A stretch of DNA of 64,000 nt from an uncultured Gemmatimonadota bacterium (lineage in GTDB: Bacteria > Gemmatimonadota > CAZMKB01). Under the pieces are notes generated by a model. That model was not told the origin of the DNA and did not search any database. It was given only the letters and a program-made list of their open reading frames with translations. The stretch is taken from positions 2,567 to 66,566 of the forward strand of contig CAZZKG010000008.1 in NCBI GenBank assembly GCA_964654825.1. The letters run 5' to 3'. The position numbers and the translations under genes are program-made. This document shows positions 3,161 to 45,928 of the stretch, piece by piece (the stretch's first letter is position 1; each line of letters begins with the position of its first letter).

Positions 3161-4722
3161 TTGACATCCACTTCAATTCTCGGAAAGAGAGCCGGGCCTT
3201 TCCGTACTATTGTTCCATCCTCCATTCCGTGCCAGATCTCGAGATCCTCGAGAGTTACCATACTGTAACCGCCTTCGAGCCCTATCTGAGTCCACAACTC
3301 GAATGCTTTGGAAGGGATCAGCGGTTTTGCAAGAATGGAGATGTGTCTCAGTGATTCGACAAGGTTGTAGAGAACATTGCGAAGCCTTTTTTCATTCGAT
3401 GAATCTTTGGCAAGCTCCCAGGGAGCGTTATCCTCGATGTACGCGTCAGCTCTCTTGATGAGTTTCCAGACCTCTGCGCAGGCCATGTGGAGTTCGTAGG
3501 ATTCCATGTATTTCATGTAATTCGACCTGACTGATTCGGCGGCAAGCTTGAGAGGGTCATTGTCCTGGGCCTCGGTCGCTTTCATGATGGTACTGTCCTG
3601 GTATTTCTCCAGCATACTGAGGACCCGCGAGAGAAGATTACCGAGCCCGTTGGCGAGGTCGGCATTGTATCGCTCGATAAACCGGGCCCAGGAAAAATCA
3701 CCATCCTTCCCACACGGAATCTCCCTTATCAAAAAATACCTGACTGCCGCAGCCCCGTAATCTCTGATGATTTCATTCGGATCGATCTCGGCCCCGCTCG
3801 TCTTGCTTACCTTCTCCCCCTCGATACTGATAAATCCATGGCCGAATATAGTCCCGGGGAGTTCGATCCGGGCCGACATCAGCATGGCAGGCCAGATGAT
3901 GCCGTGAAACCTGGTAATGTCCTTGCCGACGAGATGGAAATCGGCCGGCCAGTACCTTCTGAACTTCTTCTCATTGTGGGAGAAACCTATACCCGAAAGA
4001 TAGTTGATGAGCGCATCGAACCACACGTAGACAACACACTTCTCATCAAACGGGAGAGGGATACCCCAACGGGTACTCGATCGAGAGATGCTGATATCCT
4101 TGAGACCGTCCTTGAGAAGATTGATGATCTCGTTTTTTCTCGACTCGGGAAGGATAAAATCCGGGTTCTTCTCGATGTGATCGAGCAGGGGTTTACGATA
4201 CTTCGTAAGGCGAAAGAAGTAGTTCTCCTCCTCGATCCACTCAGCTTTGATCCCGTGATTGGGACAGAGCCCATCTTCGAGACCCTCCTCATCGTAAAAT
4301 GTCTCACACGAAACACAATACCACCCCTCATAGGTACCCTTGAAGATGTCGCCCGCATCATAGATTCTTCCAAGCACTTCCTGTACTGAAGCAATATGCC
4401 GGGCCTCTGTAGTCCGAATAAAATCATCATACGAGACGTTGAGCATCTGCCATGTGCTTTCGAAGTCTATCGCCATCTTGTCGCAGTAATCCAGAGGATT
4501 CATCCCGAGTTCCCGGGCCCTCCTCTCGACATTCAGGCTGTGCTCGTCGTTTCCCATTAAAAAACGAACATCGTAGCCGGCGAGTTTTTTATAACGGGCG
4601 ATCACATCACCGATGATCTTTTCATATGCGGTGCCCAAATGAGGTGGGCTGTTTACGTAGTCTATCGCGGTAGTGATGAAAAACTTCGGCTGAGTATTGT
4701 CATCGTCTCCACTAACCGACAT
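3157..4722 (-). CDS. metG: Methionine--tRNA ligase (short form, no C-terminal tRNA-binding domain)
   Basis: TTAIDYVNSPPHLG (HIGH), Zn knuckle CVSCE...CPNH, YVWFDAL, GKDI, KVSKT (KMSKS-like), DLANGLGNL. The ATG at 4722 overlaps the upstream TGA (TGATG); the track's 4725 is TTG. Confidence 0.96.
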   Translation of the reverse strand: MSVSGDDDNTQPKFFITTAIDYVNSPPHLGTAYEKIIGDVIARYKKLAGYDVRFLMGNDEHSLNVERRARELGMNPLDYCDKMAIDFESTWQMLNVSYDDFIRTTEARHIASVQEVLGRIYDAGDIFKGTYEGWYCVSCETFYDEEGLEDGLCPNHGIKAEWIEEENYFFRLTKYRKPLLDHIEKNPDFILPESRKNEIINLLKDGLKDISISRSSTRWGIPLPFDEKCVVYVWFDALINYLSGIGFSHNEKKFRRYWPADFHLVGKDITRFHGIIWPAMLMSARIELPGTIFGHGFISIEGEKVSKTSGAEIDPNEIIRDYGAAAVRYFLIREIPCGKDGDFSWARFIERYNADLANGLGNLLSRVLSMLEKYQDSTIMKATEAQDNDPLKLAAESVRSNYMKYMESYELHMACAEVWKLIKRADAYIEDNAPWELAKDSSNEKRLRNVLYNLVESLRHISILAKPLIPSKAFELWTQIGLEGGYSMVTLEDLEIWHGMEDGTIVRKGPALFPRIEVDVK

Positions 4723-4865
4723 CAAAATTCTTCCTCGTCCTCGTCAAAAAGATCTTCTTCTTCCTCTAAATCATCCAACTCATCGAGGTCTTCCTCGTCG
4801 ATATCGAGATCCTCATCATCGATATCGTAATCGGAAGGATTTGATTCACTGATTAGCCTGAGCAT
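4722..4865 (-). CDS. 47-aa hyper-acidic small protein (not in ORF track)
   Basis: MLRLISESNPSDYDIDDEDLDIDEEDLDELDDLEEEEDLFDEDEEEF*. RBS GGAGGAGG just upstream; stop overlaps the metG start. Confidence 0.75.
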   Translation of the reverse strand: MLRLISESNPSDYDIDDEDLDIDEEDLDELDDLEEEEDLFDEDEEEF

Positions 4866-4958
4866 GGTCCCTCCTCCATTTTCAGACAGTTACCACGTGC
4901 GGATTATGCTATCGCTTTGCTCGATAGCATTGCAAGGTCTTCAATACTACGTCGCACA

Positions 4959-5777: not shown

Positions 5778-5903
5778 GATCTCTTATCCTGGCACCTTCC
5801 TGTCCCGAAATGGGACATTAATCAATAATAATAAACCCGACCGCGATATCAATGCTTCGGTGCCCCTGCCGGCCGCATTGGTTCCCCGATGATGTCATTC
5901 CGC

Positions 5904-6959
5904 TCACTGACCGACATATCTCGCATAAAAACTCAAAGCTTCCTTCTCGGTATCAACACCCTTTATCCGGGCCCCCCCGTTACTGAAAATAATCATCTGA
6001 ACCCGACCGTCAGAGAATCGGAGATAGAAAGGTGTGAGTTCGACATCACCAAGCCCCTCGAGACGTTCCGAAAGCGCTTCGATCTGCAGCGTCCTTTTTA
6101 TGTGTGGAGTGACCTGAAAAGCTCCACTCCCACACAGCATCACAACGGCTGTCCTTTTCCTGAACTCGAGGAAGGGGAACTCCCGGTTCACACAGGCAGG
6201 GCAATCCTTCTTTCGCCCGACCGCGGGTTCCAGAAACCCGTGTTCCCACAGATCCATCATGAGCATTTTATTCTCTATCCCTTCAGCACCGGCAACGATG
6301 AATCGCATCGCCATGCTTGCCTGCCACGCCCCTATGATTACAGGTACGGTCCCGAGGACCCCCATGGTATCACAGGTTCCCAGTTTTTGAGCATCGGGGG
6401 GATCGGTGAAAACGCACCTGAAGCAGGGTCCCCGTTCAGGGAGGATGAGCAGACCGGTGCCGCTGGTCCCTATTGCGCCGCCGTAGATCCAGGGAACACC
6501 CCCGCTCACGGAATAATCATTGACAAGGTAGCGGGTCTCGACGTTGTCGGTACCGTCGATGATGATCTGCACCCCATCGAGAAGACTTTCGATGTTTCCG
6601 GAGTGCAGGTTCTCCATGCGCGTTTCCAGGCTCACCGATGAATTTATCTGAGAAAGCCTCTGTCTCGCAGCGACCGCTTTCGGCAGCCTTTTTTCAACGT
6701 CATTCTCGTCGTAGAGGAACTGCCGCTGCAGATTTGAAAGTTCGAGCACGTCTCTGTCGATGAGGATCAGCTCTCCCACACCGGCACGAGCGAGACATTC
6801 CGCAGCGGAGGAGCCGAGCGCGCCAAGTCCTACTACTGCCACCCTTGCCTTCTCGAGTTTGCCCTGACCGTCTTCCCCGATGACACGGAGACGTCTCTGC
6901 CTCGAATATCTATCCACGGACAACAGAACCTCATTTGTTAATCGCTCAGTGTCTCTCAA
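5904..6959 (-). CDS. ThiF/MoeB-family adenylyltransferase with C-terminal extension
   Basis: RYSRQ, GLGALGS, DRDVLELSNLQRQ, DGTDN, CFRC and CPAC Zn motifs. Start uncertain (TTG). Confidence 0.92.
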   Translation of the reverse strand: MRDTERLTNEVLLSVDRYSRQRRLRVIGEDGQGKLEKARVAVVGLGALGSSAAECLARAGVGELILIDRDVLELSNLQRQFLYDENDVEKRLPKAVAARQRLSQINSSVSLETRMENLHSGNIESLLDGVQIIIDGTDNVETRYLVNDYSVSGGVPWIYGGAIGTSGTGLLILPERGPCFRCVFTDPPDAQKLGTCDTMGVLGTVPVIIGAWQASMAMRFIVAGAEGIENKMLMMDLWEHGFLEPAVGRKKDCPACVNREFPFLEFRKRTAVVMLCGSGAFQVTPHIKRTLQIEALSERLEGLGDVELTPFYLRFSDGRVQMIIFSNGGARIKGVDTEKEALSFYARYVGQ

Positions 6960-8961: not shown

Positions 8962-9893
8962 TCGAACCTGGTCCCCAGTTCGATCCTGTTCCCTCTGAGG
9001 AAGGAGGCAGCATCCATCCGTTTTCTGCCCTGGACCTGAAGCTCTTCGATGGCAAGCAAACTACTCCCTGTTGCAATCACGATGGCATCAGGAAGAATCT
9101 CGACGACCGTCCCCGGCAAAGCGGAATACTCACCCGACATGAGGCGGGCCCTGTAGATTTTGAGCATCCGTCCCCCAAGTGAAGTATATGCGCCGGGTTT
9201 TGAATCCAGGGCCCGGGTCAACCGCTCAATGGACTGTGCATCAGCGTCCCAGTCGATCCGAGCATCTTCCTGGCTCACCTTCCGTGCGATGGTGGCACTA
9301 CCCACCTGTGCCTGAAACTCGGCCTCACCACCGGCAACGAGCTCGAGTCCGTCCAGAAGGACGTCTGCGCATTCCAGTGAGAGTCTCGCTGAAAGGGTGT
9401 CCAGCGTGTCACTGCTGTCTACCGGTAATGTCCTCTCGAGAAGTACAGGGCCTGTATCCATACCCTCGTCCATCAGGAAGAGAGACACTCCCGTCTCCTT
9501 CACCCCGTCCATGAGTGCGCGCTGAATGGGCGCTGCACCCCGATAGAGCGGAAGAAGCGATGGGTGAAGGCAAAGTGAACCATGTTTCGGGATATCGAGA
9601 ATCTGCCTGTGGAGCAAGCGGCCGTAAGCGACTACGACACTGACATCCGGCTCGAGAGAATGTATCTGCTCGACGAATGATTCGTTTTTTGTCGAAACGG
9701 GTTGTAGCACGGGAAGAGAAAGATCGAGTGACCTCACCTTTACCGGCGAGGGGGATGTGTTACGTCCTCTTCCGCGTGGTTTGTCCGGCTGGGTGATCAC
9801 GGATATCACCAGGTGTTCGTCTGAGTTGTGAAGCCTGTCGAGAGATGGAATCGAGAAACGGGGGGTGCCCCAGAAAAGGACCCTCATGGTCAT
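8958..9893 (-). CDS. fmt: Methionyl-tRNA formyltransferase
   Basis: FWGTPRFS, TQPDKPRGRG, VVAYG, LHPSLLPLYRGAAPIQ, MDEGMDTGP. Confidence 0.97.
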   Translation of the reverse strand: MTMRVLFWGTPRFSIPSLDRLHNSDEHLVISVITQPDKPRGRGRNTSPSPVKVRSLDLSLPVLQPVSTKNESFVEQIHSLEPDVSVVVAYGRLLHRQILDIPKHGSLCLHPSLLPLYRGAAPIQRALMDGVKETGVSLFLMDEGMDTGPVLLERTLPVDSSDTLDTLSARLSLECADVLLDGLELVAGGEAEFQAQVGSATIARKVSQEDARIDWDADAQSIERLTRALDSKPGAYTSLGGRMLKIYRARLMSGEYSALPGTVVEILPDAIVIATGSSLLAIEELQVQGRKRMDAASFLRGNRIELGTRFE

Positions 9894-10408
9894 TCCTCTG
9901 CCAGGTTCTCAGCTTTGACCTTTTTCCATTGGTTGAGGAGGATCTCCCGCTTCAGCGAACTGACCCGGTCTATGAAAAGTATCCCATCGAGATGGTCGAT
10001 TTCGTGCTGAACGGCACGGGAGAGAAGACCATCAGTTTCTAACTCGAGGTACTGCCCGTTCGCATCGAGCCCCTTCACCCGTACCCATGCCCACCGTTTT
10101 ACTCTGTCTCTCAGCTCCGGGATGCTCAGACAGCCTTCCTCCTCTACCACTTCGCCCTCATGTTGTGTAATGACGGGATTGACGAGAGCGATTCTCTGTT
10201 CACCGTAGGCGTCCATGTCTCCATCCAGAACGATCACCCTCTTCGATTCACCAACCTGGGGAGCTGCAAGACCGACTCCCCCTCCGCCATACATCGTGTC
10301 GAACATGTCCTCGATCAGGTTCCTGATAGATTCGTCGACCGATTCGACCTCTGACGCTTTTTGTTTGAGAACCTGGTCTCCGAGGATCCGTATCTTCCTG
10401 AATGCCAT
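9890..10408 (-). CDS. def: Peptide deformylase
   Basis: GVGLAAPQVG, EGCLSIP, QHEIDHLDG. Confidence 0.98.
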   Translation of the reverse strand: MAFRKIRILGDQVLKQKASEVESVDESIRNLIEDMFDTMYGGGGVGLAAPQVGESKRVIVLDGDMDAYGEQRIALVNPVITQHEGEVVEEEGCLSIPELRDRVKRWAWVRVKGLDANGQYLELETDGLLSRAVQHEIDHLDGILFIDRVSSLKREILLNQWKKVKAENLAEE

Positions 10409-16171: not shown

Positions 16172-16591
16172 TTGAAACCGATGACGAAAGGAAGGACACG
16201 CGCTGCCGTGGTGAATCACCCCGAGCTCAGGAGCCCTCCTCCCAGGCTGAAGAAAAAAAGGTTCGACCACACGGAAAAGGCGAAAAAGCGCCGGGACAGG
16301 AAAAAGAAACAGACGAAAGCCTCCGTAAAAAGGAAACTCCTGAAGGACTTCCGGAATGCGCAACACCACCTGAACATCTATAACAGGGTAACTGCACGGG
16401 AAGCTCTGAGCTTTCACCTTGAAAAGGCTCTCGAGGCCCTGGACAGCTGTCTCGAAACTCGGCCGGGCAACCACATGCTGAGAGCACAGCGATCCATCTG
16501 CCGGGATGAACTCTGGGAGATCCGGCGGCTCGAAAAGGTGGACACAAAACGAACAATCGAGATCATTATCGATCCCGACTGGCACGGCTGA
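16172..16591 (+). CDS. Hypothetical basic protein
   Basis: 139-aa ORF behind a near-consensus promoter, with a K/R-rich segment and a helical C-terminus. No family recognised; start uncertain. Confidence 0.6.
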   Translation: MKPMTKGRTRAAVVNHPELRSPPPRLKKKRFDHTEKAKKRRDRKKKQTKASVKRKLLKDFRNAQHHLNIYNRVTAREALSFHLEKALEALDSCLETRPGNHMLRAQRSICRDELWEIRRLEKVDTKRTIEIIIDPDWHG

Positions 16592-16698
16592 CCGGGGGGG
16601 AGAAAACCAGCGGCAGCATTGAGATGCGTCGGCTCTGACTTATCTGTCACCCCCCCCCGTAGGCATGGGGGAAAGGCCTCCCCGGAAGGAATTTCGTC

Positions 16699-16714
16699 GG
16701 GCACTATTCTTGCT
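16699..16714 (+). promoter_or_regulatory. Sigma-54 (-24/-12) promoter candidate
   Basis: GGGCAC-TATTC-TTGCT (GG-N10-GC), 140 nt upstream of the PAS/GAF gene. Confidence 0.55.
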
Positions 16715-16853
16715 ATATATTGAGAGGGATGATTTTTCCCTCGTGGCATGGATACCGCAGGGCGAGTTGTCGGACTTCGTATGACGCGACACGTTTACCC
16801 GAACGGCAGGGAGACGTATCCTCGGTTTACGTCACTTCCCTGCGCAGACTGTT

Positions 16854-18509
16854 ATGAAGGATCAGAACAGGACTAGAGAAGAGCTCCTCCGCGAGTTGGG
16901 CAGGCTGAGAGGTGAATACGAATCGATAGAGGGACCCGTGTCGAAGCCCGGATCATCCGGAGACGGCCGGAACCCGGCCAGGAACTCGGGCGGTTCGAGT
17001 GAGATCCACACCCTCCTGGCCGCCATTGCGACCCGATTGATCGAATCGAAGCCGGAGGAGTTCGACGGCTGGACAAGGGAAACCCTCAGGGCAGTCGGGG
17101 AATTCACTGGTGCCCGGCGCTGTTTTGTCCTCCTCTTTCACGATCGGTCGAGAAGTGTGATAGAAGAAACTTTTGAGTGGTGTGTCGAAGGGACCGATCC
17201 GAGGATGCACAAACTCCGTGGGGTTGATGTCGAGGGCTTCCCATGGCTCATGCAGAAGCTGTCCCATCTCGAAATCCTGCAGGTATCTCAGATTTCGGAA
17301 TTCCCACCCGAAGCGGAAACGGAAAAGAACCTCGCCGGCTCGCTGGGAATACACTCTGGTGTTTTTCTCGCTCTGATGAGGAGTGGTGTCATCCAGGGTA
17401 TCCTCGGTCTCGCCGTCGATAAGGAAGACATCATCAGGTCCGGAGAGACGTTGACACTTCTCCACGCCGTCGGGAAAATCATCGTATCCAAACTGGAACG
17501 CCGGCGGGAGAGAGAAGCCCTGTCCCATAACAATACTCAGCTTCACGCACTGTTCACCTCTACCCCCATCCCCCTGTTCGTAATCGATCACCACAGACGG
17601 ATCCATCGGACCAACCGGGCCGCCCGGGCTTTCTGCGGACTCACCGAGGAGGAGATGTTGGGAAAGCGCATCGGGGGGGCGATGCACTGCGTGAACGACG
17701 CCTTAGGCATCGATGGTTGCGAATCGGCTCCGGCCTGTGAAGACTGCGTGCTTCGCAGAACCATCCTAGGCATTTTCGAAACAGGTGAAGAAATTCTCGG
17801 CCTCGAGACCGATCTGACGGTAGCGGGAAACGGCGGCAGCGAGACTCGGACGGTGCGGATCAACGCGTCTCTCTTCGATAAAACCGAGATACCGAGGGTT
17901 ATTGTCGGACTCGAGGACATCACCGAGCAGAAACGTACTGAGGCTGTAGTTTGGAAGGAGAGAGACATCGCACAGAAATACCTCGATGTCGTGAGAGTGA
18001 TACTAGTTGCCATCGACTCGCACCAGCAGGTGACACTCATCAACAGGATGGGCTGCGAGATCCTGGAATATGGTGAAGAAGAAATCATCGGGAAGAACTG
18101 GTTCGACTGCTTCCTCCCGGACACGATAAAGGCAGAAGTGAAAGATGTGTTCAAAAGATTGATGGCGGGGGAGGTCGATACCAGAGGAGTCAAATACTTC
18201 GAGAATCCCGTCAGGACAAAAAGCGGGCGTGAAGTGCTCATCAGATGGCACAATACAATCCTCCGGGATGAGGAGGGGAATATCACAGGGACTCTCAGTT
18301 CCGGAGAGGACTTCACCGAGCAAAAACGCGCCGAAGAGGAACTGCTGCGACAGCGGATCAGGTTCGAAAAACTGCTGGAGGAACGGACGGCCGAACTCAG
18401 AGTATCGAACGATAACCTGCTGACGGAGAAAGCTGAACGGAAACGGCTCGAGGAGAAGCTGGCCCGGGTCCTCTCCCGGACCACCGGCGGCGGGAACAGA
18501 AGTAAATAA
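16854..18509 (+). CDS. GAF-PAS-PAS sensor protein ending in a coiled coil, no output domain
   Basis: N-terminal RTREELLREL, GAF region (FEWCVEG...FPWLM), PAS motifs (TNRAARAFCG, INRMGCEILEY...IGKNWF), PAC ends (EDITEQKRTE, EDFTEQKRAE). Confidence 0.85.
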   Translation: MKDQNRTREELLRELGRLRGEYESIEGPVSKPGSSGDGRNPARNSGGSSEIHTLLAAIATRLIESKPEEFDGWTRETLRAVGEFTGARRCFVLLFHDRSRSVIEETFEWCVEGTDPRMHKLRGVDVEGFPWLMQKLSHLEILQVSQISEFPPEAETEKNLAGSLGIHSGVFLALMRSGVIQGILGLAVDKEDIIRSGETLTLLHAVGKIIVSKLERRREREALSHNNTQLHALFTSTPIPLFVIDHHRRIHRTNRAARAFCGLTEEEMLGKRIGGAMHCVNDALGIDGCESAPACEDCVLRRTILGIFETGEEILGLETDLTVAGNGGSETRTVRINASLFDKTEIPRVIVGLEDITEQKRTEAVVWKERDIAQKYLDVVRVILVAIDSHQQVTLINRMGCEILEYGEEEIIGKNWFDCFLPDTIKAEVKDVFKRLMAGEVDTRGVKYFENPVRTKSGREVLIRWHNTILRDEEGNITGTLSSGEDFTEQKRAEEELLRQRIRFEKLLEERTAELRVSNDNLLTEKAERKRLEEKLARVLSRTTGGGNRSK

Positions 18510-18587
18510 CTCATTGTCCTGCTATCAATTACACCCCTTCGACATGCCTCCTGCCACATAGCCCACATCACACTCATACCACACTGG

Positions 18588-18616
18588 TTGACAAAACCGG
18601 TTTCTTGTGATACAAT
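18588..18616 (+). promoter_or_regulatory. Sigma-70-type promoter with extended -10
   Basis: TTGACA (18588-18593), N17, TACAAT (18611-18616) preceded by TGn. Confidence 0.75.
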
Positions 18617-18675
18617 TTCCGGTAACATGATGTGAACACTGTCCTTCACCCACTTCACGCGAAGGAGGAACAGGG

Positions 18676-19704
18676 ATGAGGAAATTCATTCTTTTCCTGA
18701 TGGTAATGCTGCTTACCGTACCAGCCCTGGTTATGGGCGGTACGGACCGTGTGGTCCTGGCCGAGCTCGGAACCGCAACCTGGTGAAACTATTGCCCGTA
18801 CGCTGATGACGCCCTCGACAGGTTGTGGGGGGAATTCGGACGACAAGAGTTCATCGCTCTTTGCTACCATCCAACCAGTGACGAGTTCGGAACCACCGAG
18901 ACGCAGAACCGACTCAACTGGTACGGACTTTCAGGATATCCCACCTGCTGGTTCGACGGCACCGACCCTTACGTAGGAGGGAGCAACTTCACCTACCAGG
19001 GATACCGGACCAGGGTAACCAGCCATCTCAACGATCCCGCTCCCGTATCCATCGATCTCACAGGATACGTTGACGCTTCCAGCGGGTCGGTCGACGCCCA
19101 TATCGAAGTGCTGGATGAGGTGACGCAGACCAGTGTCGTCGTACAATTCGTGGTATATGAGGATTACGCACAGTCGGGCTTCACAGAGTACCGCTTCGTG
19201 GTCCGGGACATCCTGCCTTCCCAATCTCTCGGCATATCTCAGCCGGGCGAGAGTGCGGACTTCACCGCTAACTTCAACGTCCAGACCGCCTGGGATGAAT
19301 CCGAAATCGGCGTTGTGGTCTTTGTACAGTCGATGAGTTCCAAGGAGATTCTCCAGGCCGCGAAACTTTCCGATGTCATCACGACGTGGTCACCCCAGTC
19401 ACCGACCGTGGTGCGGGGGACCGATCTCACCATGGATGCCGTTATCGAGAATGTAACCCCGGGCTCCGAAAACGCTGATTTCTGGCTCGAGGTGTATCTG
19501 CCCAACGGTGAGCCGTACACCGGGAATCCGGTACTGGGTCCGGTCAATTTCACGGTGCCAAACGGCTTTCTTAACACGTTCAATCCCAGTCTGTTCATAC
19601 CGGGTACCGCACCACTCTGGACCTTTACCTTCAAGGGCAGAGTCGGAGAATACCCGTGGGACATCTGGCAGACCAGCAGTTTCGATGTGACGGTTACGGA
19701 ATGA
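18676..19704 (+). CDS. Exported thioredoxin-fold/Omp28-related protein with in-frame UGA (probable selenocysteine, UxxC)
   Basis: RBS AAGGAGG and ATG 18676. Reads MRKFILFLMVMLLTVPALVMG (signal peptide), GTDRVVLAELGTATW-TGA(18784-18786)-NYCPY, continuing in frame into the track's 18823 ORF (YH, GYPTCWFDG, VVFVQ, ILQA typical of Omp28-like proteins). 342 codons. Confidence 0.85.
18812..18830 (+). promoter_or_regulatory. Candidate bacterial SECIS hairpin
   Basis: CCCUCGA-[CAGG]-UUG-(bulged U)-GGGG. The G-containing apical loop starts 32 nt after the UGA. Folded by eye only. Confidence 0.5.
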
Positions 19705-19778
19705 TGGAAGATGAAACGGGTTTGATCGACCGATGATATCGGGTCGCCCCCGTTTCGTAACAGACACACACAATACAT

Positions 19779-19821
19779 GTGCCGGGGATCCGTCGGTGAG
19801 GAACCCCGGCACTTTTATTTT
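19779..19821 (+). terminator. Rho-independent terminator
   Basis: GTGCCGGGG(A)TCC-loop-GGA(A)CCCCGGCAC followed by TTTTATTTT. Confidence 0.8.
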
Positions 19822-19848
19822 CGAGAATCAATCCCCGGCAGGGTAATT

Positions 19849-22020
19849 TCAGAAGGTGTAAATCAGCGGATTGGTCTCCCCCTGTCTCACTCCCTTCTCG
19901 CCTATCGTGCCCCCGTTGAACGAGAGGTATCCGTAATTCCCGTAATGAACGATTTTCCTGGATGGAGCCGCGACTTCTTCGAGGTTACTGCCGCAGAGAA
20001 AGACGACCGCTTTCTTCGAATTGAAGGGGTTCCGTATCACAATCACCACACTCGCGGGATCTGCGATGTCCTTCCCGTTCAGGAGGAATCCGCCTTTATC
20101 GAACGAGAACCCCCGGGGAAGATATCGCATCAGCTTCTTCGCGATCACGTTCTCATCGGGGCGGCCTATCACGAACAGGGAGCGGGTGCGGAGATCGGAT
20201 TCCGTCAGCTCTTCATCCGGCATGATCCTGACCTGCTCCTCCTTCCCCTTGAAGACCTGCGCGATATCCCGGTAATCATCCTCCCCGGCGTCCGATCCGC
20301 CCGAGGGAACAATCAAGATAGCGTTCTTGTCACCGAGAACAGTCGAGATGGTCGGTTCTATCTCGAGTGGATCGAGCCGTCTGAACACATCACAGTGCTG
20401 ATCGATGAGCAGTCTCGAAGGAGGACTGTCCGCCCGTATCCTGAATTCTTCCGAGAAATCCGAGAGAGCGACGAGTTCCTCGATATTTCCCGTTTCGGTC
20501 TCGAGAATGACCGGTATGTGGAGTCGATAGAAATCATCATCATCGATGACCTGCTTGAGTCTGAAAAAGACCTCATATTCCTCATCCTTCTTCTTTTTCT
20601 TCACATTGTCCAGCCGGACAATGGGTGCCCCTTTCCTGTCGACCCACTGATCGAAGTACCAATCCATATCTTCCATGGCGATCTCGCTGAAAATGCTCTG
20701 GATGTCGTCCCAGCCGGCTTTTTTAAACAGGTACCTCATGTAAAGAGTCCTGAGGGCTCTCACGAACTTGGCCTCACCCATATAGCTCCTCAGTTGATGA
20801 AAGATCATCGCGACCTTTCCGTAGCCAAGTGCCCGGGTGGCCGGTGTTGTCCTGCTTGTAAAAGACCGTACCGGTTGATCGTTCTCACCGTTGACATATA
20901 CCGTGTAGTCCCGTAGCAGATTTTTCCGGTATTCGACTCCTTTCTCAACCGATTGCTCCTCCTTGTAGTGATGATCGGCGAGATAGGTGGTGAGCCCCTC
21001 ACACCAGTTGCCCCGTTTATAATGGACAAACACCCCGTTACCCCACCAGTTGTGAAGCACCTCGTGCCCGAGTGAAGTGTAGACAATGAAGGGCAGCCTG
21101 ATTACTCTGCTTCCTAGAAGTGTAAACGAAGGCATGCCGTACCCGGTTGGGAAAAAATTTTCTACGATGGCGAATTTTCCGTACGCGTAAGGACCGATCA
21201 TCTCTTCGTACATGTCAATATACCGTGCTGTGGCTTCGAGATACGATTCGACGAGGTCTTTCGATTCGGGCATGAAAAAAGCGTAGATCTCGATACCGGC
21301 GTGATGGAGGACGGTCACTTCCCACTTCCCCATGATCAGATAGATTGCATCACTCGGACAATTCGACACCCAGGTCGTGATTACCGAACTCCCCGCATCC
21401 TCCCTCGAGACCTGCCTCCCCTGGGAGACGGTCTCGTAGCCCTCCGGAGTGACCGTCGTGAGATGGAAACGGGTCATCGAGCCCTCGAATACCGGGTACC
21501 AGAAACTCACCTCACTGAGAAACGCCCCTCGTTCCTCGATGAGACCGGATGTCTCATCGGCGATGCTTGTCCTTGAAAACTCAGGGACGGTAAGCGAGTC
21601 GAATATCACACCCCGGTAACGCACCTCCAGATTGACGGGATCATCGCCCCAGGACCCCTGGACACGCACGAGTCTGGCGTTTTTGTAGGCTTCTTCCCCT
21701 CCTTCACCTGCATCTTCCACAATATCGGCGATCCGGTAATCGACGATTTCCTCGAAAGGAACGTCTTCTTCATCGATCCTCACGCCATCGATTTTGAGTG
21801 ATTTATTTAGAAAAAAAGCTAGAGAACCGTCTACGGGGAAAACTTCCATCCTGTCAACCGCTTTGAGACTGTGTTCGGCAGGTGACAGCTCGATGTCGAT
21901 CACGTGTGAAACTGCAGCAGGGTCCCATCCGGTCCCGAAAGTCATCGAGGCGAACGAGAATGAAAATATTGTCATCACACCGAATATCACAACACTGAAA
22001 ATTATCGAAGGACGGTCCAT
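19849..22020 (-). CDS. M1-family (gluzincin) aminopeptidase, exported
   Basis: Signal peptide, FFPTGYGMPSFTLLG, HEVLHNWWG...WCEGL (HEXXH-X18-E), YGKVAMIFH. Confidence 0.9.
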   Translation of the reverse strand: MDRPSIIFSVVIFGVMTIFSFSFASMTFGTGWDPAAVSHVIDIELSPAEHSLKAVDRMEVFPVDGSLAFFLNKSLKIDGVRIDEEDVPFEEIVDYRIADIVEDAGEGGEEAYKNARLVRVQGSWGDDPVNLEVRYRGVIFDSLTVPEFSRTSIADETSGLIEERGAFLSEVSFWYPVFEGSMTRFHLTTVTPEGYETVSQGRQVSREDAGSSVITTWVSNCPSDAIYLIMGKWEVTVLHHAGIEIYAFFMPESKDLVESYLEATARYIDMYEEMIGPYAYGKFAIVENFFPTGYGMPSFTLLGSRVIRLPFIVYTSLGHEVLHNWWGNGVFVHYKRGNWCEGLTTYLADHHYKEEQSVEKGVEYRKNLLRDYTVYVNGENDQPVRSFTSRTTPATRALGYGKVAMIFHQLRSYMGEAKFVRALRTLYMRYLFKKAGWDDIQSIFSEIAMEDMDWYFDQWVDRKGAPIVRLDNVKKKKKDEEYEVFFRLKQVIDDDDFYRLHIPVILETETGNIEELVALSDFSEEFRIRADSPPSRLLIDQHCDVFRRLDPLEIEPTISTVLGDKNAILIVPSGGSDAGEDDYRDIAQVFKGKEEQVRIMPDEELTESDLRTRSLFVIGRPDENVIAKKLMRYLPRGFSFDKGGFLLNGKDIADPASVVIVIRNPFNSKKAVVFLCGSNLEEVAAPSRKIVHYGNYGYLSFNGGTIGEKGVRQGETNPLIYTF

Positions 22021-41590: not shown

Positions 41591-41734
41591 TGTGATCATT
41601 CCCCGGGCGTCATGATTTGACTTCCTCTTCCCGCGTTCGGTTGGCATAACATCCAACGGGGCAAATTATCTGCTCCCAGGGACCCGGTATGTGGGTCAAG
41701 AGTCTCGCAATGAGCTCATGCGGTGTGATCTTTT

Positions 41735-42582
41735 CTATTGAACTTCTTCAAGTCTGTTTGTTTCCTCATAATTTATACCCATAGTCGCCGGCAGTCCGTA
41801 TTCCTCCGGATGCAGATACTTACCACGCTCTTCGCCCACTTTTTCTACCTCAACCTTAACGCGATGAGCATTGGCATAGGCGTCCTGACGGATACCGGTT
41901 ACCTGCCAGGAAACTTTCATGCCCGGTAAGCCTCCCCCGATATGGAACTCGTTGCCTGAGATCTCTTCGGCTATATATACCGGGGCAAAACCACCGATAC
42001 AGGTAAGTTGATAGCGGAAATCTTTATTCAGAGCCTCGAACCAATCGGGTAGTTCAACCCATGCTTCACCATTTGCATCGAGTGTCACATTGCCGTTATA
42101 AACGTTCATCATATCGGGAGACTCAACAAAGGAATGATGGAGGAATTTATTGGCCGGATCAAGCGGGTGGTCAATTTTGAATGATCCACCACCTTATAAA
42201 AATAACCAAGGAAACCGCTGACACCATCGATGACTTCCAGCATGTAAACGGGGTTGGCGGCGGCCGTCCCGATGCCGACTTTCCCATCCTTGGTAATCCG
42301 CATCCGCTCATACCAGTCATCAGGATCCATGAAATTTCCAACATTGGTTGAAAATATCATATCATCAGTTACCAAGCCATTTCCGGGAAAATAGTTGCCT
42401 ATACACCAGTCTATCCATTCGCCGGGAAAACTTTGATCACCGTCCCCACCATAAAAACCACCACTGGCAGGGCCACCGTCCGGGACAATAAACCTGTCCG
42501 CCCATTGAATTTGTGTAAAGGCAGAAGTTGGAACAACAACCAGCCCCCAGACCAAAATCGATAGAATCAGTAAATTTCTCAT
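41735..42582 (-). pseudogene. Frameshifted exported protein (signal peptide, GKVGIGT motif, FKIDHPLDP/HSFVESP C-terminal domain)
   Basis: Start ATG 42582 (MRNLLILSIL...). Adding one G at 42192-42193 joins ...LGYFYK to GGGSFKIDHPLDPANKFLHHSFVESPDMMNVYNG, the frame of the 41735-42112 ORF. Confidence 0.8.
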
Positions 42583-42729
42583 TTTTCGCTCCTTCCTCCT
42601 GGCAAAATATTTCGAGTGTGACAAAGGTTAAATATGTCGTGTCTTTTCTGTCGCCTCTCCTCTCTTCTAACTCTCGAATTTACACTCCAAGTACAGAAGT
42701 ATATCCCGCACATAGTTCCCTTGACAGTA

Positions 42730-43841
42730 TAGTTATATGCAGCGTCTTAAGTAATTGCGCACAATCTACGCAACGTATCGTTTGGTTTGCACCATGGGTC
42801 GAATTGATTGAGCACGGCATCAATCAGTTCCTCAAGGACCGAGAAGTAACGATTGTGGATACAGAGCCGTCGTGTCAGCCTCCATACTCGTTCAATGGGA
42901 TTCAACTCTGGACTGTAGGGTGGCAGAAAATCAAGCCTCAATTGGTTGTGGTGCTTTTAACCAGGGCCGTAGCAATATAGAATGATGCCACCGTTTGTTG
43001 TCTAAGACTACAACAATCATACGGTTCCTTCGACGATGGCGCAAGAGTTATTTCAAAAACGAGAGAAACGTTTCTGCATTGAACTTCTCCCCAACGCTTG
43101 TAACAAGCCTGTCGTTGTTCATACAAACGGCTCCAAAGACTCCCACACTCTTGCGAGTAGGCGCATGCAGAACGAAGGGGTCCACATCTTCCGGAGGCAC
43201 CCACATGGTGCAACGTGAACCGTGTTGCTGGAAATGGCATTCGTCCTCAAACCACAGATCAAGATCATTCCTTTTTGCGAGTCGTTTCAGTTTTTTTATA
43301 TGTCTGCTGAGCTTGGGAGTCAGCATGAGCGATGAAAGGGCGCGGCTTGCGAAGGCGAAATCCCAACTGGTGGAACAGCCTCTGGCATTGACGGATGCCT
43401 ATCTGCACTTTGTAGTTCTGTGCCAGATGATGACTGAGAAGCCTTCCATCCCAGAGATTCTGATTGTAACCGAACTCACGTGGAGACATGCGCAGATCCT
43501 CACCAACTGCCTGGCGCATGGCTTCATCGAGAGCAGCAGGACGTCCGCTACGCGAGCCTTCCCAAAGACCGGCAAAACCATTTTCTTCGAAACGCCTTAC
43601 CCAGTATTGAATGGTTCGAGGACTGTGTCCGAGTATTTCTGCTACTTCGTAACAACTGAAATCGGAACATACCATAAGAATACTATGGAGACGGTGATCA
43701 TAACGAGACTCCTCGGACCTGAGGATTTCATCCTGCACCCCAAATCGCATAATTTCTGCATCTTTAATCGTGAGTTTGCGCATGATTCTCTCCTTTCTCT
43801 TAGAATGATAATATAAGGGAAAGAATAATTATGCGCAACTA
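42730..43841 (-). mobile_element. IS630-family insertion sequence, degenerate
   Basis: HTH ORF 43265-43783; DDE motifs WFEDE, VVLDN and FLPPYSPELNPIERVW split over frames; both ends read TA|TAGTT with TA at 42728-42729 and 43842-43843; about 1.1 kb. Confidence 0.9.
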
Positions 43842-43902
43842 TATATGACGCTCATATAGATAGCAAGAGCAAGCATAGGATGAAATAACATGCAAAATGG
43901 AA

Positions 43903-43931
43903 TTGACTCAAATTGAGAAAGTTCGTATATT
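43903..43931 (+). promoter_or_regulatory. Sigma-70-type promoter candidate
   Basis: TTGACT-N17-TATATT in the AT-rich region upstream of the polysaccharide genes. Confidence 0.45.
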
Positions 43932-44273
43932 ATCAGTCAATTCGCAGGATGCAGTTATTGGATTCATTAACCAGAAAACATCTGGGTTACATCAAGATTC
44001 TCAGAAATATCCAAATACAAACCCCATGGTATTAAGAGTATAGGATAGCTTCTATCACAGAATTTGAAGTTGAAATCACTCGTTTTAATTGAATGTATAG
44101 ATATAGGTAATCGTATATCAACAGATATTATTTAAAACAATATATGCCGCTTCATCTTCCATTTTTCAAAGCCGCTGACACTTGTCAGGTTTTTTCATAT
44201 TTGATATCTGGTCGTTCATTCTCTGTTAGAATGATTTAAAGATTAATCATTATTTATTAAGGCGTGATACATT

Positions 44274-44927
44274 ATGGTACATGATATCGTGATCCTCGGG
44301 GCTGGTGGCCATGCAAAAGAAATTGCTCAACTCATTGAAGATATAAATCTGAATGAAAAAACATGGAACCTCCTTGGTTTCATTGATAAAGATTCGTCTA
44401 AAATAGGAATGAAGCACGGTCGGCACAAAATTATTGGGGACGAGAATTATTTCGATAACTTTCGCAGAGATCTCTATCTCACTATTGCGATTGGCTCTCC
44501 TTCGAAAACAAAAAGCCTTTCCGAGCATATAGTGGGACGGTTCCCACATATTCTTATACCAAATCTCATTCATCCTTCTGTTGTGAATTATAAGAGAAAT
44601 GTCTCGATGGGAGAGGGTAACATTATCTGTGCCGGCAATATTTTGACCACTGATATTATACTTGGTTCTTTTAATTGTATTAACAGAGGATGTAACATTA
44701 GTCACGATGTTGTAATCAAGGATTTCTGTTTATTAAATCCAGGAGTTAATATCTCAGGTGGTGTATCAATTGAATCGGGTTGCCTCATCGGTACGGGTGC
44801 TACTATACTTCAATATCTCAATATTGGTGAAAATGCTACGGTGGGAGCTGGAGCAGTGGTGACTAAGGATGTTGAAAACGGAAAAACTGTTGTAGGTATA
44901 CCAGCACAACCAACATCAAGTGATTGA
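44274..44927 (+). CDS. NeuD/PglD-family sugar acetyltransferase (hexapeptide repeat)
   Basis: ILGAGGHAKE, GFID, AIGSP, IHPS, left-handed beta-helix, VGAGAVVTKDV, VVGIPA. Confidence 0.92.
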   Translation: MVHDIVILGAGGHAKEIAQLIEDINLNEKTWNLLGFIDKDSSKIGMKHGRHKIIGDENYFDNFRRDLYLTIAIGSPSKTKSLSEHIVGRFPHILIPNLIHPSVVNYKRNVSMGEGNIICAGNILTTDIILGSFNCINRGCNISHDVVIKDFCLLNPGVNISGGVSIESGCLIGTGATILQYLNIGENATVGAGAVVTKDVENGKTVVGIPAQPTSSD

Positions 44928-45928
44928 TGGTAAATCGATCGATCGTGGAGGGAAAATTGAGAGTACTGATCACAGGTGGTGCAGGATATATTGGATCGGT
45001 TCTGGTGCAACAACTTCTGCGGAGAAATTACCGGGTTAGAGTTCTAGACATTCTCACTTTTGGCGGAGAATCTTTGCTTGGGGTTATCAATAATCCAAAT
45101 TTTGAGTTCACGAAAGGCGATATCAGGAAAAAGAATGTCGTGAAGGAGGCTATTGAGGATATTGATGCCGTCGTTCATCTGGCAGCTATCGTAGGAGATC
45201 CGGCATGTGCAAAACAACCGTATCTTGCAAGAGAAACAAACCTCGATGCTTCCCTGTTGATCTATGATCTTTGCAATACCTCACGCAATGTCAAAAAATT
45301 CATCTTCGCTTCTACCTGCAGTAATTACGGCAAAATGGATGGTGATGGATATATCAATGAGGACTCATCACTCAAACCCGTTTCCCTCTATGCCAGATTG
45401 AAGGTTGATTTTGAAAAGTATCTTCTTGATAGTCAGACAAGAGAAGATTTTATCCCCACTTCACTCCGATTCGCTACCGTTTATGGTATTTCTCCCAGAA
45501 TGAGATTCGATCTGACTGTGAATGAATTCACCAGAGATGTTACTCTTGGGAAAGAACTCATTATCTATGGTGAACAATTCTGGCGTCCCTATTGCCACGT
45601 CGAAGACCTTGCCCGGTCGTGCCTACTGGTGCTGGAATCTCAGTCTGGCCTTGTTAATCATAAAGTATTCGGAGTCGGCCACACGAGTGAAAACTACCAG
45701 AAGAAAATGCTTGCGGAAGAGATAATAAAGGTTGTACCCGAAGCAACAATCTCATATGTTCACAAAGTTGAAGATCCAAGAGACTATCGAGTTGAGTTTT
45801 CGAGAATTAAGGATGAATTAGATTTTAAGATCACAAAAAAGGTACCGGATGGTATTCGGGAAATTCACTTCCTCATCACGAGTGGACTACTCATTAACCC
45901 TGAATGTTCAACCTATAGCAATATTTAA
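44924..45928 (+). CDS. NAD-dependent nucleotide-sugar epimerase/dehydratase
   Basis: TGGAGYIGS, HLAAIVGD, ASTCSNYG, YARLK (YxxxK), LRFATVYG. Confidence 0.93.
   Translation: MMVNRSIVEGKLRVLITGGAGYIGSVLVQQLLRRNYRVRVLDILTFGGESLLGVINNPNFEFTKGDIRKKNVVKEAIEDIDAVVHLAAIVGDPACAKQPYLARETNLDASLLIYDLCNTSRNVKKFIFASTCSNYGKMDGDGYINEDSSLKPVSLYARLKVDFEKYLLDSQTREDFIPTSLRFATVYGISPRMRFDLTVNEFTRDVTLGKELIIYGEQFWRPYCHVEDLARSCLLVLESQSGLVNHKVFGVGHTSENYQKKMLAEEIIKVVPEATISYVHKVEDPRDYRVEFSRIKDELDFKITKKVPDGIREIHFLITSGLLINPECSTYSNI

Follow-up and report, generated by a model that had tools for sequence, protein, structure and literature searches.

The gene at positions 18676-19704 of the 64,000-nt stretch of DNA analysed here (the window, from an uncultured Gemmatimonadota bacterium) probably encodes an exported thioredoxin-like selenoprotein, in which selenocysteine (Sec) would be specified by an in-frame UGA at codon 37 (UGA37). 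Judging from the sequence, we give this reading, with the gene as a single monocistronic unit, a probability of about 85%. The gene can be followed in one frame on both sides of the UGA, the column of the UGA holds Cys codons in most homologues, and a hairpin placed like a bacterial selenocysteine insertion sequence (bSECIS) element is conserved just downstream. Unless another locus is named, coordinates are positions in the window, on the + strand; orthologous loci are labelled L001, L002 and so on.

Reading frame and gene anatomy

The sequence reads as one frame from an ATG, through the UGA at codon 37, to a TGA stop at 19702-04, with 305 sense codons between UGA37 and the stop, as the first-pass annotation of this DNA had described. 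The N-terminal part, MRKFILFLMVMLLTVPALVMGGTDRVVLAELGTATW, ends in AELGTATW and is followed by the TGA at 18784-18786, after which the frame continues as NYCPYADDALDRLWGEF..., beginning with NYCPYADD; the predicted Sec-containing peptide is GTATW-U-NYCPYADDALDR. The program-made list of open reading frames (ORFs) breaks the gene into a 36-aa ORF (18676-18786) and a 293-aa ORF starting at the TTG at 18823, in agreement with the earlier remark that the ORF track begins at this TTG and misses the active site. The promoter, ribosome-binding site (RBS), ATG, signal peptide and AELGTATW-TGA-NYCP reported there were all read as described (Table 1), and the leader shows n-, h- and c-regions, with a putative cleavage site after VMG.

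Conservation of the UGA codon

A protein search recovered seven close relatives (62-98% identity), and for each of them the contig sequence upstream was read in frame. All seven public gene calls are N-terminally truncated, with starts at differing points downstream of the TGA, and one of them is annotated as 'Omp28-related outer membrane protein [Candidatus Glassbacteria bacterium]'. L009 ('Gemmatimonadota') came from a scan of species-representative genomes, in which L003, a Glassbacteria metagenome-assembled genome (MAG), was met a second time as L010. The eight orthologues compared, all from independent assemblies and with 63-85% nucleotide identity, are the window, L001 (the same as L002), L003, L004, L005, L006, L007 and L009, and every one of them has TGA at the identical column. 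In L001 and L003-L007 a signal peptide and GTDRVVLAEL come before the TGA and x-[YF]-C-P comes after it, with Q in place of the W before the TGA in L001/L002. Across the eight sequences codons vary synonymously while the encoded residues are kept, 5' as well as 3' of the TGA and in the same frame, and the residues are also kept in the 12 codons that separate the TGA from the TTG at 18823; the signal peptide is encoded only upstream of the TGA.

TGA also occupies the column in more remote relatives, namely L023, L042/L097, L091, L093, L094/L096 and L120, and a metagenome scan recovered more of these distant Sec forms and no more close orthologues (best 42% identity). The column reads TGC or TGT in 102 relatives, TGA in 16 distinct genes, and TAA or TAG in none; a TAA in L020 and a TGA in L074 are chance matches to the motif elsewhere, not at the column. 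At least 875 Cys homologues are present in a large protein collection, many of them with PKD or type IX secretion system (T9SS) tails. The ancestral state of the column is Cys, and switching between Sec and Cys has occurred several times. The earlier proposal that the UGA sits on the first Cys of a thioredoxin WCxxCP motif is borne out by this alignment, in which the column also corresponds to Cys48 of Porphyromonas gingivalis HBP35 and to the first active-site Cys of thioredoxin 1fo5.

TGA is the commonest stop in the window, terminating 21 of the 38 genes tallied, in such a way that the standard code applies and any read-through at UGA37 must be site-specific. Searching the window for other genes split by a TGA gave none. 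Two further places, the ThiF/MoeB tail at 5784-6020 and the frame at 42755-43816, were checked and discarded as selenoprotein candidates.

SECIS-like hairpin

Downstream of UGA37 the window sequence folds into a hairpin of -10.0 kcal/mol, with a GGU loop 34 nt after the UGA and a stem of 8 bp interrupted by a 1x1 G·G mismatch, whereas most orthologues have a perfect 9-bp stem. The form CYCUCGACA-GGU-UGUNGGGRG, starting 25 nt past the UGA, is common to all eight orthologues. Published criteria for bSECIS elements are a loop of 3-9 nt with G in loop position 1-2, a stem of 4-16 bp, a distance of 16-37 nt from the UGA and an energy of -7.5 kcal/mol or lower (PMC13188914). The window hairpin passes them, against a background of 4.4% among the 2575 TGA triplets of the window, with 1.6% reaching -10 kcal/mol. 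A G-containing loop, SECIS-like spacing and a bulged U had been claimed for this hairpin from the sequence; the loop and the spacing stand, and the bulged U was not seen.

The hairpin is also under constraint at the nucleotide level. Among the eight orthologues the sole invariant run of 9 nt or more in the gene, 13 nt long (CTCGACAGGTTGT), lies inside it, and so does the sole run of three or more identical codons (L-D-R-L); the 13-nt sequence has no other occurrence in the window or the loci. Only four of the 76 invariant Leu, Arg, Ser, Gly, Ala, Val, Thr and Pro columns use a single codon, and three of these four are in the hairpin. When the best bSECIS-type hairpin after the codon was compared between forms, the median energy was -9.0 kcal/mol in 15 Sec forms versus 0.0 in 92 Cys forms (Mann-Whitney p=2e-9, a value that overstates independence because the sequences are phylogenetically related). 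The signal is limited to the local hairpin, as the 81 nt after the UGA, folded whole, are no better than shuffled sequences (z -0.36). A lower stem present in the minimum free energy fold (CUGA/UCGG) was rejected, since it is not kept in the orthologues.

With respect to the bSECIS consensus (E. coli fdhF type; PMC13188914), the element is likewise a hairpin within the coding sequence, with a stem of 8-9 bp and a small loop starting with GG(U), but its spacing is near the upper limit and it has neither the bulged U nor an Rfam match; contact with SelB is predicted. The position of the SECIS-like element differs between clades of the family. L093 has a shifted hairpin, CUCGACC-AGUU-GGUCGGG, with C-G in place of the apical A-U pair. 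In the Planctomycetales Sec forms (L042 from 5894 onward, L097 from 601 onward) the best hairpin is ACGCC-GGUCG-GGCGU, nearer to the UGA, and its loop starts 18 nt after the UGA with GGUC, presumably resembling the SECIS loop of E. coli fdhF.

Fold and domains

When the family profile was compared with the Protein Data Bank (PDB), HBP35 (5y1a) was the best match (E 6.6e-6), and the thioredoxins 1fo5, 2ypm and 1nho were matched across the CxxC. As these matches span the motif, U37 and C40 align with C48 and C51 of HBP35 and with the CPHC of 1fo5. In the family alignment P89 and T90 never vary, and their counterpart in 1fo5 is its PT motif, which we take to be the cis-Pro loop of that thioredoxin.

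The AlphaFold model of a Cys homologue, P0008 (pLDDT, the predicted local confidence, 85.5), has a thioredoxin topology followed by a β-sandwich. The order of its elements is β-(CxxC)-α-β-α-β-β-α, with a strand at 44-48, C54xxC57 at the N-terminus of helix 1, and this helix at 57-74. The best PDB match of the model is also HBP35 5y1a (E 1.4e-9, TMq 0.61, 244 columns), and against the Omp28 domain 2r2c it gives a TMt of 0.67. The window protein, modelled from codon 38 (pLDDT 81.9), shows helix 1, the remaining thioredoxin domain and two β-sandwiches, the tandem of which matches RbmA and factor XIII barrels. The window protein probably shares the thioredoxin topology of P0008. The Pfam family Omp28 (PF11551) matches residues 81-230 with 32.4 bits (E 1e-7), below its cutoff of 34.9. 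The thioredoxin/Omp28-like fold put forward in the first-pass annotation is thus supported by the P0008 model and its PDB matches.

Other C-terminal modules were seen in distant Sec forms: L023 (9986-11020) has a T9SS sorting tail, L094 (917-3016) has thrombospondin-type-3-like repeats and dockerin-like repeats, and L120 (111-1181) has a PKD-like region and dockerin-like repeats. These differences suggest that a Sec thioredoxin-Omp28 module has been reused in several surface-protein architectures.

Relationship to known proteins

The best NCBIfam match of the window protein is NF045500, 'Omp28-related selenoprotein', with 76.2 bits against a cutoff of 200. The other Sec forms score 22-83 bits on this model, none of them at the cutoff, and a GOS_C read scores 336.7 bits. 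NF045500 is the 'Hypothetical protein GOS_C' (UxxC) listed in Table 1 of a 2026 review (PMC13188914). GOS_C was predicted by Zhang and Gladyshev in 2008 from ocean metagenomes, with 74 Sec sequences and 312 Cys homologues, and was described with a thioredoxin (Trx)-like fold and SECIS-like elements (PMC2398784). In a BLASTP alignment the GOS_C read JCVI_READ_1092961114687 shares 23% identity over 238 aa with the window protein (E 5e-11), with its U on U37.

Both groups have a predicted hydrophobic leader at the N-terminus, a Trx-like UxxC with the Sec column in common (...NUPYCP... in GOS_C, ...WUNYCP... in the window), an Omp28-like region after it and a bSECIS-like hairpin downstream, and both have numerous homologues with Cys. 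The window clade differs in the W before U, in a Cys after cis-Pro-Thr and in an extra C-terminal immunoglobulin (Ig)-like domain, and it comes from Glassbacteria-type MAGs, whereas GOS_C comes from the GOS marine samples. The score of 76 bits against a cutoff of 200 places the window gene in a separate subfamily. By sequence comparison, the gene belongs to a selenoprotein superfamily already known from prediction, as a divergent member that falls outside the curated equivalog. The Cys after cis-Pro-Thr, which GOS_C lacks, is Cys91 (18946-18948, in YPTC); it was found in 13 of 14 Sec forms and 20 of 77 Cys forms, an association that is biased because the Sec forms were mostly retrieved with a pattern requiring PTC.

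HBP35 of P. gingivalis (5y1a) is also an exported thioredoxin-like domain with a β-sandwich, and its WC48GYC51PGG aligns with W-U37-N-Y-C40-P of the window protein. It reduces insulin with dithiothreitol, which the C48S/C51S mutant fails to do, and it can complement an E. coli dsbA mutant (PMC2907840). In contrast with the window protein, HBP35 has Cys and not Sec; it is a glycosylated, surface-attached protein with a C-terminal T9SS sorting domain, and its residues 135-344 mediate hemin binding. No T9SS tail was found in the window protein with TIGR04183 or PF18962, not even at E<=1. The Omp28 outer-membrane lipoproteins (PF11551, NF033782, 2r2c) share a homologous middle β-sandwich, but the window protein scores below their cutoffs (32.4 versus 34.9 for PF11551, 33.2 versus 150 for NF033782) and its leader has no lipobox Cys, the homologue P0008 having LSSC. 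The predicted exported DsbA-like, DsbG-like and thiol:disulfide interchange selenoproteins (PMC13188914) are likewise extracytoplasmic UxxC proteins of the thioredoxin fold and have Sec replacing the attacking N-terminal Cys of CxxC; they are nevertheless other families, without Omp28 or Ig-like domains, and no significant sequence relation to them was found.

Literature searches on Omp28 with selenoprotein, and on Glassbacteria with selenocysteine, returned nothing. Exported UxxC selenoproteins, and this Omp28-related family among them, had already been predicted, and the window gene is no new kind of system or mechanism.

Proposed function and significance

Translation would start at the ATG at 18676. 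When the ribosome reaches UGA37, the hairpin would recruit SelB·GTP·Sec-tRNA(Sec) and Sec would be inserted, after which the ribosome would melt the hairpin and read it as A-L-D-R-L-W-G. The protein would reach the cell envelope via the Sec translocon, directed by its signal peptide. In the mature protein, U37-N-Y-C40 would lie at the start of helix 1, opposite the cis-Pro loop Y-P89-T-C91, and the Omp28-like β-sandwich and the clade-specific Ig-like domain would complete the chain.

By analogy with HBP35, the window protein may be an extracytoplasmic selenol/thiol-disulfide oxidoreductase. Sec37 would attack a substrate disulfide or an oxidised species, and Cys40 (possibly Cys91) would resolve the selenylsulfide. 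A role in the maturation or protection of exported proteins can be envisaged, and the neighbouring peptidase genes are conserved in some of the orthologous loci, not in all.

Public annotation truncates every member of the clade, and the NCBI entry of the Glassbacteria MAG starts 3' of the UGA. The truncation drops the signal peptide and the active site, so that its correction alters both the predicted location and the predicted function. The GOS_C/Omp28-related selenoprotein family would also be extended to a deep-branching uncultured lineage, and, with its hairpin so cleanly conserved, the gene lends itself to the study of SECIS constraints within a coding sequence. A broader joint reading, which we consider doubtful, is that this is the first sign of UGA-to-Sec decoding in Glassbacteria, in a cell-envelope protein, and that Sec37, Cys40 and Cys91 form a three-residue selenol/thiol relay near the cis-Pro loop, with a chemistry that the Cys homologues lack (for example, peroxide or polysulfide handling); the adjacency of selD to a family member in L018 (see below) would point to a connection of the family with selenium handling itself.

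Alternative readings

Several observations weigh against a selenoprotein. A search confined to the 64-kb window and the flanking sequence of the orthologous loci detected neither selA, selB, selD nor tRNA-Sec. The selenoproteins of the window clade and of GOS_C are predictions, and the full fold was modelled on the Cys homologue P0008, not on the window protein with its N-terminus. No Rfam SECIS was detected in the window at gathering thresholds or in 18700-18900 at E<=10. Covariation in the hairpin is weak, with one pair varying as CG/UA/UG and 49 of 500 shuffles scoring as high, a count that is non-significant because the hairpin hardly varies; the support for the hairpin is its conservation, not compensatory change. 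Moreover, L008, an ENA contig 98% identical to the window (equivalent to 16505-20741), has GGA at codon 37, and in L001/L002 (~9880-9931) a 1-nt frameshift separates the signal peptide from the mature part. We regard L008 as unreliable, given its coverage of 2.98x and its 162 clustered differences (e.g., 16816-16896, 17690-17732 and 18868-18998), which include indels in the gene and a new TAA at 18832, and its appearance is that of a low-quality assembly, not of a variant. The frameshift in L001/L002 is an extra G in a G-run (GGCGGGGACC versus the expected GGCGGGACC), present in two assemblies (JGI and Logan) that possibly derive from one read set; it could be an error or early decay to a pseudogene.

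If UGA37 were decoded without selenium, by a suppressor or atypical tRNA or by near-cognate read-through inserting Cys, Trp or another residue, the product would be the same exported protein and not a selenoprotein, a view that the ancestral Cys, and the failure to find Sec machinery in the sequences searched, would suit. It is nevertheless improbable: with TGA as the commonest stop such decoding must be site-specific, and the site has a conserved hairpin with bSECIS loop and spacing, the homologous GOS_C proteins with U at the same column are curated as selenoproteins, and the pairing of TGA and hairpin recurs in several lineages. Very improbable is a true stop, giving a 36-residue peptide and a separate 293-residue protein from the TTG at 18823, or a decaying pseudogene. 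The split in the program-made ORF list, the public orthologue calls starting downstream of the TGA and the L001/L002 frameshift go in that direction, but the codon is always TGA, at one column, in eight orthologues with protein conservation on both sides and over the 12 intervening codons; TTG 18823 is a Leu of the invariant L-D-R-L within the hairpin; the public starts differ in position; and a product from this TTG would have neither the signal peptide nor the CxxC, which all 102 Cys homologues have. A sequencing or assembly error that turned TGC, TGT, TGG or GGA into TGA is hardly credible, since the GGA of L008, close as that contig is, comes from the assembly with low coverage, mismatch clusters, a TAA and indels in the gene, and TGA is carried at the column by seven other independent assemblies (JGI, NCBI, ENA and Logan). 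An exported selenoprotein with Sec at UGA37 is the reading that we favour.

Genomic context

The gene has its own promoter and a terminator-like hairpin (Table 1), the latter overlooked by a simple terminator scan and seen by RNAfold. Between the stop and this hairpin lies a further strong hairpin without a U-run (19711-19758, AAACGGG...CCCGUUU), and the final ~10 codons of the gene show the second-lowest synonymous diversity among the orthologues (19650-19758 region).

Table 1. Position of the features of the predicted selenoprotein gene in the window.
Feature	Position	Strand	Basis
Sigma-70-type promoter, TTGACA (18588-18593) / 17-nt spacer / TACAAT (18611-18616), TG extended -10 (18608-09)	18588..18616	+	11/12 matches
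RBS AAGGAGG, 7 nt ahead of ATG	18662..18668	+	read from sequence
Complete coding sequence, 342 codons + stop, UGA codon 37 as predicted Sec	18676..19704	+	sequence and orthologues
Signal-peptide-like N-terminus MRKFILFLMVMLLTVPALVMG, n-/h-/c-regions	18676..18738	+	orthologues share n/h/c layout
Thioredoxin-fold domain, ~residues 22-120	18739..19035	+	profile matches to HBP35/thioredoxins; P0008 model
In-frame TGA, predicted Sec (U37)	18784..18786	+	TGA in 8/8 orthologues and ~8 distant relatives
Redox motif U-N-Y-C (U37, C40) inside W-U-x-x-C-P	18784..18795	+	aligned to HBP35 C48/C51 and CPHC of 1fo5
SECIS-like hairpin CCCUCGACA-GGU-UGUGGGGGG, loop 18821-18823, also coding for A-L-D-R-L-W-G	18812..18832	+	folding and conservation
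Y-P-T-C, predicted cis-Pro loop (P89, T90) and extra Cys91	18937..18948	+	family alignment, 1fo5 alignment
Omp28-like β-sandwich, ~residues 121-232	19036..19371	+	Pfam Omp28 below cutoff; P0008 versus 2r2c
C-terminal Ig-like β-sandwich, ~residues 233-342, clade-specific, without Pfam match	19372..19701	+	model of the window protein
Intrinsic-terminator-like hairpin GCCGGGG...CCCCGGC, then U-run ACUUUUAUUUU	19779..19821	+	RNAfold and sequence

The gene had been described as lying among secreted peptidases and hydrolases, and genes for M1 and M14 peptidases, a subtilase, a GHL15 protein and a sulfatase are indeed nearby. The order tgt / queA / ruvBAC / yebC / PAS sensor / target gene is also found in L001 and L006, and the M1 peptidase gene is 3' of the gene in L001 and L004; L003 has neither arrangement, so that no operon-level link is implied.

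In the tblastn search with E. coli SelA, SelB and SelD against the window and the loci, the 'SelB' matches in L012 and L092 proved to be EF-Tu, and the sole genuine match was SelD in L018/L090. This selD homologue (L018 2470-3849, the same as the L090 contig; WOR-3 MAG QNBE01000050.1) is apparently itself a selenoprotein gene, reading ...ETITCPG-TGA(2866-2868)-ASKLSS... with a UxxK motif. Its N-terminal extension has CPC...CPC...CHC motifs resembling ferredoxin-thioredoxin reductase, and a Cys-form member of the Omp28-related family (ORF 3893-4957) comes immediately after the selD homologue, an adjacency that, as a single case, may be due to chance.

Elsewhere in the window, the stretches 41600-44250 and 43500-45000 gave no Pfam or NCBIfam matches, and the ORFs 42109-42624 and 42995-43816 are oddly translated. 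The G+C content there is 0.35-0.42, versus 0.51 for the window, and the stretch is located at the start of a polysaccharide-synthesis cluster with PglD-like, epimerase, DegT, sugar transferase, Wzz, flippase and Wzi genes.

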